From positions 1,536,001 to 1,600,000 of the forward strand of contig OY729426.1 of assembly GCA_963422365.1 (NCBI GenBank): a DNA stretch of 64,000 bases, read 5' to 3'. Made by a program: the position numbers and the translations under genes. The stretch comes from Nitrospirales bacterium. GTDB lineage: Bacteria > Nitrospirota > Nitrospiria > Nitrospirales > UBA8639. Position 1 is the stretch's first letter; each line of letters opens with the position of its first letter. This document shows, piece after piece, positions 2,058 through 7,800 of the stretch. A model generated the notes under the pieces. That model was not told the origin of the DNA. It was given only the letters and a program-made list of their open reading frames with translations, and searched no databases.

Positions 2058-2597
2058 ATGTCAAAAAATTGGTACGTGATTCACACCTATGCGGGCTATG
2101 AAGGTCGAGTGCGGACTTCCTTGGTTGAGCGAGTAACTCAAATGGGGCTTGAGGAAGAGTTCGGGCAGGTCCTGGTCCCCACTGAGGATGTGATCGAAAT
2201 CAAGGATGGAAAACGTCGCGCGTCCAAGCGAAAGTTTTTCCCCGGGTATGTGCTGGTCGAGTTGCAGTGCCCCGTCAAAGACGCAACGGTGATGATGATA
2301 AAAGAGACTCCCAAGGTCACGGGGTTTGTGGGCGGGGGAGAGGCGAAGCCCATGCCCCTGCCGAGAGAGGAAGCGGATTCTCTTCTGAAGCAAATCGAGT
2401 CTGGTGTTTCTCTTCCTCGAGAGCGAGTCTTTTTTTCCAAAGGCGATAATGTGCGGATCGTTGATGGGCCGTTCATGGGCTTTAACGGCTTAATCGACGA
2501 GGTAGATGACGAGCATAGTCGAGCCAAGGTGTTGGTCAGCATTTTGGGTCGTTCGACTCCGGTCGAATTGGTGTTTACGCAGATAGAGGGGGGATAA
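2058..2597 (+). CDS. nusG: Transcription termination/antitermination factor NusG
   Basis: WYVIHT, FPGYVLV, KOW motif GDNVRIVDGPF. Confidence 0.98.
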   Translation: MSKNWYVIHTYAGYEGRVRTSLVERVTQMGLEEEFGQVLVPTEDVIEIKDGKRRASKRKFFPGYVLVELQCPVKDATVMMIKETPKVTGFVGGGEAKPMPLPREEADSLLKQIESGVSLPRERVFFSKGDNVRIVDGPFMGFNGLIDEVDDEHSRAKVLVSILGRSTPVELVFTQIEGG

Positions 2598-2694
2598 GGT
2601 TGTCGGGAATGCCGTGAATGGTTGTATCCGTGTCGGCAACAGGTGACGTTGTTCGTGAGTCAACGAACTGGCAGAAAAAAAAGAGGATAGAGCG

Positions 2695-3120
2695 ATGGCA
2701 AAAGAGATCATAACGCAAATCAAATTGCAGATTTCCGCGGGGAAGGCCAATCCTGCTCCACCCGTTGGCCCTTCCTTGGGTCAACATGGTCTCAACATTA
2801 TGGATTTCTGCAAGCAATTTAACGCGAAGACCCAAAAGCAGGAAGGAAGCATCATCCCTGTTGTCATTACCGTCTATCGAGACCGGAGTTTTACCTTTAT
2901 TACGAAAACCCCTCCGGCTGCCGACCTCTTGAAGAAAGCGGTGGGGATTATCAAGGGATCCGGGGTTCCGCAGAAGGATAAAGTTGGCGCGATCTCCCGT
3001 GCACAATTACAGGAAATCTCCAAGCAAAAAATGGAAGATTTGAATGCAGTGAATATTGAAGGAGCGATGAAGATTATCGAAGGCACCGCAAGGAGTATGG
3101 GGGTCACGTTGACTGACTAA
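2695..3120 (+). CDS. rplK: 50S ribosomal protein L11
   Basis: [18 protein letters not shown]. Confidence 0.98.
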
Positions 3121-3154
3121 CGTGTTCGTTGGTTTTCAAAGGGGAGTGTGAGTC

Positions 3155-3847
3155 GTGGGAAAGCAATTACAGGGCGCGGCAGCAAAAGTTGAGTCTAAAC
3201 TGTACGGTCTCCAGGAGGCGAGTGAATTCGTGAAGCAGGCGGCCTATGCCAAATTTGACGAGACCGTGGAATTAGCCATTCGGTTAGGCGTTGATCCGAA
3301 ACGCGCAGACCAAATGGTGCGTGGCACGACGGTTTTACCTCATGGCACGGGGAAAAAGGTCAGGATTTTGGTGTTTGCCAAAGGGGAAAAAGAGCAAGAA
3401 GCCAGGCAGGCTGGTGCCGATTTTGTGGGTGTTGATGATTTGTTGGAAAAAATTAAAGGGGGATGGTTGGATTTTGATCAAGCCATTTCCACTCCTGACC
3501 TGATGGCTTCTGTCGGAAAATTGGGAAAAGTGTTGGGGCCACGTGGTCTGATGCCCAACCCCAAGACAGGAACCGTGACATTTGAAGTGGGGAAGGCGAT
3601 CGAGGAAATCCGGAAAGGTCGGGTCGAGTACAAAGTGGATAAGGCCGGGAGCGTCCATGTGCCGATCGGCAAAGTTTCGTTTGCCGTATCGCAAATCACC
3701 GAAAATGCGCAGGCGGTTTTTACGTCGGTGGTGAAGGCAAAGCCCTCCTCAAGTAAGGGGAAGTATCTTAAGGGTGCGACCATGTCGAGCACCATGGGGC
3801 CGGGTGTTCCCTTGGAATGTACGACCCTGGCTCGCCAATTTGATTAG
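3155..3847 (+). CDS. rplA: 50S ribosomal protein L1
   Basis: [30 protein letters not shown] start. Confidence 0.98.
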
Positions 3848-3871
3848 TCGCGGTGTAAAAAGGAGCCGGGC

Positions 3872-4804
3872 ATGAAAAAGGAACAGAAGGCAGGGGTGGT
3901 TTCCGATTTGCACGAGAAGTTTGTTAAGGCCAGGTTGGCCGTGGTGACGGAATGTGGAGGGATGCCGGTTAATCAAGTGACTCAGTTGCGACGTCAACTT
4001 CGTGGATCTCAGGCAGAGTTGAAAGTGGTGAAGAATTCCTTGGCTGCGAGGGCTGCGGTGGGGACCTCGTTATTGCCCGTCGTGTCGTTGCTGAAGGGGC
4101 AAGTCGCGGTGGTCATCGGCTACGATGATCCGATTTTGCCTGCCAAAATTCTTCGGGATTTTATTAAGCGAGAAAAATGCGATGGGAAAATTCTTTGGCG
4201 GGGTGGTGTCATAGAAGGAAAAGCTCTTGAGCCTGCACAACTGCTCGTGACAGCGGATTTGCCTTCCAAAGAGGTTTTGCTATCAACGCTGGTGTCTGCT
4301 ATGCAAGGGCCTCTTCGAGGAATGGTGGGAGTGCTTCAAGGGATTTTACGAGGATTTGCTGCCGTGCTGGTTGCGATTCAAGACAAAAAGAAAGGAGAAG
4401 GAGAAATGGCTGCAACGGAGGCAAAGCTTTCCAAAGATGACATTCTGGGGGCCGTTGAAAGCATGACGGTTTTAGAGTTGTCTGAACTGGTCAAGGGATT
4501 TGAAGAAAAATTCGGCGTGACGGCAGCGGCGCCGGTCGTGGTAGCTGCACCGGCTGCAGGGGATGGTGCGGCTCAGGCTGCCGAAGAAAAAGACTCCTTT
4601 GATGTGGTGTTAGCCAGTGCCCCGGCTGACAAGAAAATTCAAGTCATTAAAGTGGTGCGCGAGATCACCGGGCTTGGGTTGAAAGAAGCCAAAGATTTAG
4701 TGGAAGGGGCACCCAAACCGGTCAAAGAAGGTGCGGCAAAAGATGAGGCGGAAACGCTTAAGAAGAAACTCACGGATGTAGGGGCTACAGTCGAAGTCAA
4801 GTAG
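3872..4804 (+). CDS. rplJ: In-frame fusion ORF: ribosomal protein L10 (aa 1-178) plus L7/L12 (aa 179-310)
   Basis: L10 motifs ([20 protein letters not shown]) read without a stop codon into L12 ([19 protein letters not shown]...[24 protein letters not shown]). Confidence 0.93.
4406..4804 (+). CDS. rplL: 50S ribosomal protein L7/L12 from an internal start inside the fusion ORF
   Basis: In-frame ATG at 4406, AAGGAG at 4392-4397 (8-nt spacing); complete L12 sequence, 132 aa. Confidence 0.9.
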
Positions 4805-4887
4805 TGGGCGAGGTTTGATGCGGGAGCATTTCCCCTGGTTGCTCAGGACAGGTTGTATTACAAGCATAGATGCAGAAGGAGCCGAAT

Positions 4888-7800
4888 ATGCCTCAACCTC
4901 CATTGCCGGGAATCATCAAGCGCACTGATTTTTCGAAAATTCAGTCGACGATTGACATTCCTGACCTCGTCGAAGTTCAAAAACGCTCATACGAGGGGTT
5001 TTTGCAAAAAGATACCGACCCTGAGCGTCGTGCGGAAAAGGGGCTTCAAGCCGCGCTCATGAGTGTCTTTCCCATTGCAGATTTTAATAGTTCAGCCATT
5101 CTGGAATTTTCCAGTTATTCGCTGGGAACGCCCAAGTACGATATGCGAGAATGTTTGGAGCAGGGCATGACCCTTGCCGCCCCGTTAAAGCTACGAATCC
5201 GGCTGGTGGTATTTGATCCGCAGGAAAAGGGGGTAAAGAACAGCAAGGTGCTTGATGTCCGAGAGCAGGAAGTGTACGTGGGCGAGCTTCCTCTGATGAC
5301 GGATCGGGGAACGTTTATTATTAACGGCACGGAGCGGGTGGTGGTGAGTCAGTTGCACCGTTCTCCCGGTGCATCGTTTAGTCATGATAAAGGGCGTACC
5401 CATTCCAGTGGCAAAGTCTTGTTTTCCGCGCGCATCATTCCGTATCGAGGGTCCTGGTTGGATTTCGAGTTTGACGCGCGGGATATTTTGTACGTCCGCA
5501 TCGATCGCCGACGCAAAATGCCCGCCACGATCTTGTTGAAGGCGTTTGGCTCGTCAACGGATGACGTGCTGAAGATGTATTATCCCATTGAGGACATTCG
5601 GGTTTCAGATGGGAAACTGATGCGGAAGGTGGATCCTGAACTTCACGTGGGATTGCGTTCGTCAGTCGAAGTCTTCGAGGGGGACGGTAAGGACCTCATT
5701 GTGCGAGAAGGGACGAGGCTCACCAAGTCGTTAATGGCAAAAGTTCTGGCGGCCGGTGTGAAAGAGATCCAGGTGAAGCCGGAAGAATTGGTTGGGCGAG
5801 CGGTGTTGACGGAAATTCTGGATGTGGAAAAGGGAGAGGTGCTGGTTGAAAAAAATCAACGGTTGACTTTGCCCATGATTGAACGGCTTCTTGCATTGAA
5901 GCCTTTTAGTTTCAAGGTGATTTATTTGGATAGTGCGGCGGCTACACCGATCATTTTAGATACCTTGGATGCTGAACGGACGAATTCTCAAAAGGAAGCC
6001 TGGGTGGAAATCTACAAACGACTTCGACCGGGAGAAATGCCTTCCGTAGATTCGGCCAAGCTCTTGTTTGAAAACTTGTTTGTCAACCCTAAGCGGTATG
6101 ATCTGTCTCCAGTCGGACGGCTGAAGATGAATAACCGTTTTTCGTTGGACCTTCCTCTCCTCCAGCGGGTGCTCACCTCGCAAGATGTGGTGGAAGTGAT
6201 CCGCTGTCTCGTCGAATTAAAAATGGGTAAAGGCGATGTGGATGACATTGATCATTTGGGGAATCGTCGGGTTCGGACCGTCGGAGAATTGCTCGAGAAT
6301 CAGATTCGGTTGGGATTAGCCCGAATGGAGCGTAGCATTAAAGAACGGATGAATCTACTCGACATGGAGACAGTGCTGCCGCACGACTTGATTAATGCCA
6401 AACCCATTGTGGCCGCCATTAAAGAATTTTTTGCCGGCAGTCAGTTGTCGCAGTTTATGGATCAAACGAACCCTTTAGCTGAAATTACCCATAAGCGAAG
6501 ACTGTCTGCCTTGGGGCCTGGCGGGCTTACTCGTGAGCGCGCGGGGTTTGAAGTGCGCGACGTCCATCCGTCCCACTATAGTCGTATTTGCCCTATCGAA
6601 ACCCCTGAAGGGCCGAATATCGGGCTCATCACCTCGTTGGCGACCTATGCGCGAATTAACGAATTCGGGTTCATTGAAGCCCCATTTCGAAAAGTCCAAA
6701 AGGGACGTGTCTTGCGGGATGTCGAATTTCTTTCTCCCTTGGAAGGAGAACGCTACGTCATTGCCCAAGCCAATTCCCAAGTGGATTCAGCCGGTCGCTT
6801 GTTGTCCGATTCGGTGACGGCAAGGTCTGAGGGAGAGTTTATTTCCACGACGCCGGATCGAGTTGATTATGTGGACGTGTCCCCGAAGCAAGTGGTCAGT
6901 GTCGCAACCGCGTTGATACCCTTTCTCGAGCATGACGACGCAAACCGTGCGTTAATGGGGTCGAATATGCAGCGTCAGGCTGTGCCACTCGTGCAGAGTG
7001 AGTCGCCGCTGGTCGGAACCGGCATGGAAGCCGTGGTGGCTCGCGATTCCGGGTACGTTGAACAAGCCAGACGAGATGGGGTCGTGGAAAGCGTGGATGC
7101 CAGACGTATTGTGGTGCGAACTGAGCTTGGCAAGCTGGACGAGGGAAAAAAGAAGGCCGGACGCTTTTGGGATACGTATGACTTAGTGAAATTTCAACGA
7201 ACCAATCAAAATACGTGCGTGACCCAAACCCCGATCGTGAAAGTTGGGCAGCCGGTGAAAAAAGGGCAAGTGTTGGCGGATGGGCCAGCCATCGATCGTG
7301 GAGAGTTGGCTTTAGGAAAAAACATCTTGGTCGGATTCATGCCCTGGGGCGGATACAACTTCGAAGACGCGATTTTGCTGAGCGAGCGACTGGTTCGCGA
7401 AGATACCTTTACGTCTATCCACATTGAAGAGTTTGAGGTTGAAGCCCGTGATACCAAATTAGGGAAGGAAGAGATTACCCGCGATATTCCCAACCTGGGC
7501 GAAGAGGCCCTAAGAAACCTTGATGAAAGCGGGATCGTTCGAATCGGGGCTGAGGTCAAGGCTGGAGACATCCTGGTTGGAAAAGTGACCCCCAAGGGTG
7601 AAACGCAATTGACCCCGGAAGAAAAGTTGCTTCGAGCGATCTTTGGAGAAAAAGCCGGTGATGTCAAAGATACGTCCCTTCAAGTTCCTCCGGGAATTGA
7701 GGGGATTGTGGTGGATGTCAAGATTTTCTCCAGAAAAGGGATTGATAAGGACGAGCGTTCGAAGAATATTGAATCCCAAGATCGCGTGAAAATTGAACGG

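Follow-up and report, generated by a model that had tools for sequence, protein, structure and literature searches.

The window analysed here, a 64,000-nucleotide stretch of DNA from a Nitrospirales bacterium, carries the usual gene cluster tuf-rpmG-secE-nusG-rplK-rplA-rplJ-rplL-rpoB-rpoC, in which rplJ and rplL are present as a single frame. This open reading frame, at 3872-4804 on the plus strand, encodes 310 amino acids without an internal stop. The features of the locus, with the evidence for each, are the following.

3155-3847, plus strand: rplA (uL1), the upstream neighbour of rplJ (ORF list)
3860-3865, plus strand: Shine-Dalgarno (SD) sequence of rplJ, AAGGAG (sequence; pairing with the 16S tail of -8.1 kcal/mol)
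3872-4804, plus strand: rplJL, 310 codons, uL10 (residues 1-178) running into bL12 (residues 179-310) (ORF list and Pfam; open in 70/70 loci of the order)
3872-4255, plus strand: uL10 rRNA-binding domain, residues ~1-128 (PF00466, E 7.8e-26; model pLDDT 83-91; Foldseek matches to L10 chains)
4268-4396, plus strand: uL10 C-terminal helix, residues 133-175, with three predicted bL12-dimer sites (model; 1ZAV alignment)
4385-4405, plus strand: linker KKKGEGE, the former rplL ribosome-binding region read as codons (comparison with the relative G316; low pLDDT at 175-188)
4392-4397, plus strand: internal SD sequence AAGGAG, 8 nt upstream of the ATG, likely the working one (-9.0 kcal/mol; codon conservation)
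4398-4403, plus strand: second AAGGAG, 2 nt upstream of the ATG, less conserved and probably non-working (sequence and conservation)
4406-4804, plus strand: nested rplL (bL12, 132 codons) from the internal ATG (ATG in 70/70 loci; single PF00542 match in the genome)
4433-4573, plus strand: bL12 N-terminal dimerisation domain and hinge, residues 188-234 (PF16320, E 5e-19)
4598-4801, plus strand: bL12 C-terminal factor-binding domain, residues 243-310 (PF00542, E 1.4e-29)

Within the frame, Pfam assigns residues 1-98 to L10, 188-234 to the L12 dimerisation domain and 243-310 to the L12 C-terminal domain. The bL12 part is complete, with its dimerisation domain, Ala-rich hinge and C-terminal domain. 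The junction reads AAA AAG AAA GGA GAA GGA GAA ATG (4385-4408), with codon 179 being the ATG at 4406. The genome, one contig at 98.6% completeness, contains a single PF00542 match, which lies inside the rplJL frame, and a second rplL elsewhere in the genome is thereby ruled out. Contigs of four out of four sequencing runs, from three studies, bridge the junction with 0 differences and 0 gaps, although the best of the four may be the source of this DNA. The first-pass annotation had described an rplJ that reads without a stop codon through KKKGEGE into a complete L12; the frame, the Pfam domains and the contigs of the four runs bear this out, with neither a stop nor an indel at the junction.

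The fused frame is fixed throughout the order Nitrospirales. Examined locus by locus, 70 of 70 Nitrospirales loci, belonging to four families, are fused, while a stop is present in 10 of 10 genomes from other orders of the same class. A single full-length, stop-free match was obtained in 40 of 41 genomes, and the 41st (G028) gave two contig-end pieces, both of which run across the junction. In a 301-genome draw of the phylum, 84 of 85 other genomes of the order are stop-free across the junction and one is without a match; outside the order, among the matches listed, every full-length single match has stops, and most genomes give two matches. Identity among the fused proteins of the four families goes down to 56%, and the N. 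defluvii protein CBK41052.1 is one of them. Whether the arrangement was already known in relatives had been left open at first. The comparison of loci answers the question: the genes of these relatives are not separate, and the order-wide frame is named in both GenBank and UniProt.

The GenBank name, 'Fused 50S ribosomal proteins L10 and L7/L12 (modular protein)', dates from the N. defluvii genome (CBK41052.1 / D8PCU3). Further annotated fusions are N. nitrificans CUS32203.1, N. japonica SLM48502.1 and N. moscoviensis rplJL A0A0K2G9H7, and the UniProt label is 'Multifunctional fusion protein', rplJL. In some annotations only a 133-aa L12 is called. Annotation pipelines thus call a 310-aa 'L7/L12' or 'L10', or the short L12 alone, and in consequence L10 looks missing and proteome searches never seek the free L12. 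A full-text search, with most subscription journals outside it, returned no study of an L10-L12 fusion, and a look-up of terms for the fusion found nothing in PMC3353972 and in the available portion of PMC7203096. The fusion is annotated, yet apparently unstudied. The present analysis adds tests of whether the internal start works, together with DNA-level evidence of repeated origins outside Nitrospirales.

In the nearest relative without the fusion, G316, the corresponding position holds AAAGGAG, followed by a separate rplL starting MATATKLSK; the linker of the fused protein is thus the former rplL ribosome-binding region, now translated as codons. Several properties of the junction are consistent with a start site that has kept its function. 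The junction ATG is kept in 70/70 loci, and the residue after the junction Met is A, S, P, T or V in all 70, versus 200 of 409 cases after other internal Met residues. A small residue after Met is expected for an N-terminus that loses its Met. When anti-SD pairing is computed against the genome's own 16S tail, values of <= -7 kcal/mol are reached at 70/70 junctions versus 8% of the 409 other internal ATGs. Four codons before the Met, Gly is encoded by GGA or GGG in 64/64 cases (53% elsewhere in these frames), and the Lys codon before that Gly is AAA in 64/65 (33% elsewhere in these frames). In all 36 distinct junctions the pairing is stronger than the average over synonymous resamplings (means of -9.6 and -7.9), with most single junctions at p 0.1-0.35, few of them significant alone, and related genomes not being independent; the resampling is weak for a single junction because codons for K-G-E are purine-rich anyway. 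In family f3, the linker is PKEDSM and the SD sequence lies in a different codon frame (AAG GAG GA): what is kept is the DNA signal rather than the peptide.

The messenger around the ATG is also open. When 43 loci thinned to <88% identity are compared with synonymous permutations, 42 of them show less mRNA structure in the 40-nt window centred on the ATG (+2.7 kcal/mol), and this window is the highest of 50 along the Nitrospirales frame. In this genome, the SD pairing (-9.0) and the local folding (-2.3) of the internal site fall inside the range of nine ordinary nearby starts. The first-pass annotation had pointed to tandem AAGGAG motifs before the L12 ATG; both are present, but only the first stands at a working distance (8 nt). 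The second leaves a spacing of only 2 nt and has lost its GGR codon in 16/70 loci, so the first is likely the working site, and the second was rejected as a working SD on grounds of spacing and poor conservation. An internal promoter for rplL was rejected by a weak scan, which returned one sigma-70-like site in 2500-5000 against 1.2 expected and none before 4406. The internal start at codon 179 looks used. Since the frame keeps the start signal of L12 itself, cells likely make both tethered and free L12.

The structural model of the fusion contains a confident L10 domain, a continuous helix at residues 133-175, a disordered linker at 175-188 and a poorly resolved L12 part, and the AlphaFold monomer (pTM 0.46, linker pLDDT <50) is uninformative on docking. 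The Foldseek top matches include the T. maritima L10-L12(NTD) complexes 1ZAX and 1ZAV. Residues 128-174 align gap-free to residues 133-179 of T. maritima L10 (1ZAV); L10 chains of 166 aa, the B. subtilis type, match no further than the first 27 of these residues. In the parts of the two reports available, the T. maritima L10 helix is described as binding three L12 dimers (PMC1635324, PMC10931766), and stalks as having 2-4 L12 dimers each (PMC10931766). The length of the uL10 helix accordingly predicts three bL12-dimer sites, and the three segments previously noticed in the L10 C-terminal helix are confirmed by the gapless T. maritima alignment. The distance from the Gln of the helix QGP motif to the first hydrophobic residue of the L12 helix is 46-48 residues in 70/70 loci and never <46. 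By precomputed Pfam, PF27436 lies between the L10 and L12 domains in P0190 and in many Nitrospirales fusions.

Fused genes also occur outside Nitrospirales. Representatives at 50% identity contain 22 further full-length L10-L12 proteins, one of them from Nitrospirales. At least 307 fused proteins, a set which drew also on two profile searches (best 120 matches of each), fall into 27 groups below 60% identity; one group is junk (P0089), and 11 of the non-junk groups are single proteins and possible errors. By source names only, fused protein records come from Armatimonadota, Ca. Fervidibacter, Bipolaricaulia and Chloroflexota/Dehalococcoidia. At the DNA level, stop-free L10-L12 frames are present in Chloroflexota and Acidobacteriota: fused loci were found in at least 3/151 genomes of the class of a Dehalococcoidia record, at least 12/401 of the phylum of a Chloroflexia record and at least 3/401 of the phylum of an Acidobacteria record, all of these being lower bounds because strict E-value cut-offs were set. 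A metagenome lineage (L170-L183) is fused in 14/14 classable loci (15 fetched). The arrangement is rare: among the best 80 loci from 599 sampled genomes, 79 were classed and 3 are fused, all labelled Nitrospira/Nitrospirae. Loci L167 and L184 were not classable, and the junction Met of L032 was set by hand at position 181, not 188.

Some of the collected proteins depart from the simple design. P0003, P0004, P0009, P0018, P0021 and P0028, with lengths of 322-1056 aa, bear 4-8 tandem L12-head-like repeats, and P0003 and P0021, the two inspected, are without the L12 dimerisation domain. In P0017 and its 16-member cluster, which are fusions, the dimerisation helix of the L12 part is preceded by a charged N-terminal extension of ~20 residues.

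An SD sequence (-6.4 to -12.1) and an L12 start codon are present in 32/32 fused loci outside Nitrospirales, a count from which L215 (fused junction, upstream broken) and L233 (out-of-frame overlap) were excluded. The start codons are ATG in 17, GTG in 14 and TTG in 1. The lineage L170-L183 lacks a junction Met: what follows its AGGAGG or AGGAGGT is GTG (13 loci) or TTG (1), and a swap of Val and Leu at this position makes sense only as a swap between putative start codons. The same lineage has a longer tether, and its L12 would start one residue before the first helix, from the GTG or TTG. The dip in mRNA structure reappears outside Nitrospirales: of 29 distinct loci, 26 show it (+2.8 kcal/mol), and the window is again the highest, here of 18.

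A tree was built from 91 hand-picked rows (43 fused, 48 unfused) with the junction left out. Fused and unfused genes require 14 changes on it, of which at least 7 are forced by well-supported branches; the tree is unrooted, and gains and losses are therefore not told apart. An AU test on 38 of the 91 rows rejects one clade of fused genes (p 2e-62). A single origin of the fusion is thus rejected and, judging from these gene sequences, the arrangement arose separately in several bacterial groups. Four unfused Chloroflexota loci, L194, L198, L206 and L228 (genomes G408, G356, G392 and G625), have the rplL SD within the last rplJ codons, where it is read as EGG or QGG, and rplJ ends at an in-frame stop that lies 0-9 nt upstream of the rplL start; they are plausible pre-fusion intermediates. 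In L233 (G815:C8:153890-154450, minus strand), rplJ stops while overlapping rplL out of frame; the locus is a 71% relative of a fused Chloroflexota clade, and could represent a reversion or an assembly error.

We consider that the locus makes two products, an L10-L12 fusion and, by initiation at the internal start, free L12, likely in a proportion of one tethered to five free L12, and we place the probability of this reading at about 0.78. The first-pass annotation had proposed the fusion and the free L12 from an internal start; the sequence tests support that proposal, which is still one that we infer. As to its origin, the spacer between rplJ and rplL may have shrunk until the rplL SD sat in the last rplJ codons, after which the rplJ stop would have been lost and the frame would run into rplL with the SD and start codon retained inside. 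The read-through product would have been tolerated, because the L10 C-terminus lies where the L12 N-terminus binds, and fixed repeatedly. One mRNA would then give the 310-aa fusion (start 3872) and a free 131-aa L12 (start 4406), the internal start presumably being used several times more often than the first. The fusion would remain uncut, and its tethered L12 N-terminal domain would pair with one free L12 and, held by a flexible tether of ~15 residues, dock on the last segment of the helix. Such a stalk would contain one covalently tethered and probably five free L12, with one of the three helix sites filled by the tethered pair.

The upstream region would leave little space for regulation by a leader. 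The rplA stop and the rplJ start are separated by 24 nt (3848-3871), a gap that seems too short for an L10 autoregulatory leader; across loci the gap is 10-133 nt in the 70 fused loci and 20-289 nt in the 10 outgroup genomes. An Rfam leader search gave no match in 2 fused and 10 outgroup loci alike, and so does not distinguish the two groups.

Published Nitrospira proteomes show expression of rplJL, in tables that report per protein and not per peptide. A look-up of recorded sequencing runs returned none of RNA that contains this stretch. In the available part of the N. moscoviensis proteome (PMC9381531, Table S1), rplJL (312 aa) has 69-90 spectra. By iBAQ in the first sample it ranks 3 of 47 ribosomal proteins, at 2.2x the median and below two single-copy ribosomal proteins, a ranking for which 28 of the 46 others are seen and the remainder are lower in the sorted table. 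In the available part of the N. marina data (PMC8115632), the NSAF of the 311-aa fused protein is 1.5x the median of the 29 other ribosomal proteins seen (of ~47); 6 of these 29 exceed it, and single-copy proteins spread 8-fold. The predicted multiples are 1.0 for the fusion only, 2.2 with three free copies and 3.0 with five. The observed 1.5-2.2x, as far as these tables go, fall between the models and slightly below one plus five, with the scatter of single-copy proteins larger than the effect.

The alternative that survives best accepts internal initiation and supposes that the fusion is then cleaved at the linker, either while the stalk assembles or afterwards, to give an ordinary non-covalent L10(L12)6. 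The linker is predicted to be disordered and is Lys-rich, hence it would be protease-accessible, and the per-protein proteome tables are silent on an intact 310-aa chain. Yet the linkers share no motif, being KKGEGEM, PKEDSM and KKGMGEM in the order and SSGGEM, ATGGSV and QEGTGM elsewhere; they track the SD in the DNA rather than a peptide motif, and each of the many separate origins would need its own protease site. We regard cleavage as unlikely.

A quite improbable alternative is that only the fusion is made in quantity, the internal signals being a relic and one (or two) L12 heads being affordable for a slow-growing nitrifier. The modest excess in N. marina and the single-copy proteins of equal abundance, in the parts of the tables available, agree with it. 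However, a relic would decay, whereas all four families still have the start codon, the SD and the unstructured window, and the start swaps among ATG, GTG and TTG in other lineages. The three-site helix is also kept at full length, and free L12 would therefore be needed to cover it.

It is also conceivable that a programmed frameshift or drop-off at the junction purine run frees L10, with read-through as the minor product. The junction is an A-rich run beside an SD-like motif, a combination typical of dnaX-type frameshift sites, and A AAA AAG occurs in 5/43 loci. This explanation is very hard to maintain. Of the 43 thinned loci, 38, this one among them, have no heptamer of the form X XXY YYZ; a ribosome shifted to the -1 frame would meet its first stop at a point that ranges from 25 nt upstream to 407 nt downstream of the ATG, and in the +1 frame this point is scattered from -23 to +61. 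Lastly, erasure of a stop codon by an assembly or sequencing error, in favour of which nothing speaks beyond the general rarity of the arrangement, is refuted by four runs identical base for base, by the 70 fused loci of the order and by the same fused annotation in isolate genomes.

Returning to the fusion with free L12 from an internal start, its interest lies in the fact that L12 is the textbook multi-copy, non-covalently bound ribosomal protein with its own gene. Here it stands in frame with L10 throughout an order of nitrifiers of global importance, with nitrite oxidisers and comammox among them, and in small clades of several other phyla. If the fusion stays intact, these bacteria would provide ribosomes in which one L12 arm is naturally fixed and the free copies are odd in number, and with them a convenient way to ask whether factor recruitment depends on L12 exchange, dimer symmetry and copy number. 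They would equally test by what means a single mRNA, lacking both a stop codon between the genes and an L10 leader, holds the two products at 1:5.

A bolder proposal, which we put forward as tentative, is that this is a second stalk design that evolved many times, with a non-exchangeable L12 arm fixed to L10 and the rest supplied from a nested start, in which the tether is selected and not merely tolerated. A selected tether could guarantee one factor-binding head per ribosome, nucleate stalk assembly or add an extra dimer. The last variant would imply one tethered and seven free L12, beyond the three helix sites, with a helix that is not lengthened.

Among known systems, the annotated Nitrospira fusions are the closest. 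They are the orthologous frame, 63-65% identical to this gene and sharing the junction Met 179; the records seen name the fusion and are without mention of the internal start, free L12, tethering or recurrence. The canonical rplJ-rplL operon, with its uL10(bL12)4-8 stalk, has the same domains, the gene order rplK-rplA-rplJ-rplL-rpoB and an rplL with its own SD and start, which are retained here at the sequence level. It differs in that here no stop separates the genes (in all 70 loci of the order), one L12 would be covalent with the free copies odd in number, and there seems to be no space for an L10 leader (24 nt). The T. maritima L10(L12)6 complex, as described in the available parts of its reports, shares the three-dimer helix length (1ZAV-1ZAX; PMC1635324, PMC10931766). 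Unlike the -1 frameshift of the dnaX type, this junction has neither a conserved slippery heptamer nor a conserved shifted-frame stop.

Genes with in-frame internal starts that give long and short isoforms include infB (IF2 alpha/beta), clpB and cheA. What marks such isoforms, a conserved in-frame start, an SD and open mRNA structure inside the ORF, is found here as well; the likeness extends to a nested start with its own SD and to two products predicted in one complex. In contrast to these genes, the short product here would be the ancestral separate gene, nested by loss of a stop codon, and would have to outnumber the long one about five to one. Finally, archaeal and eukaryotic uL10 (P0) bears its own C-terminal factor-binding tail. 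By analogy, rplJL would place one covalent factor-recruiting tail on the stalk base beside free stalk dimers and, if the tether is indeed selected, would be the bacterial counterpart of the P0 tail, with the difference that a whole bL12, comprising dimerisation domain, hinge and globular head, is attached.
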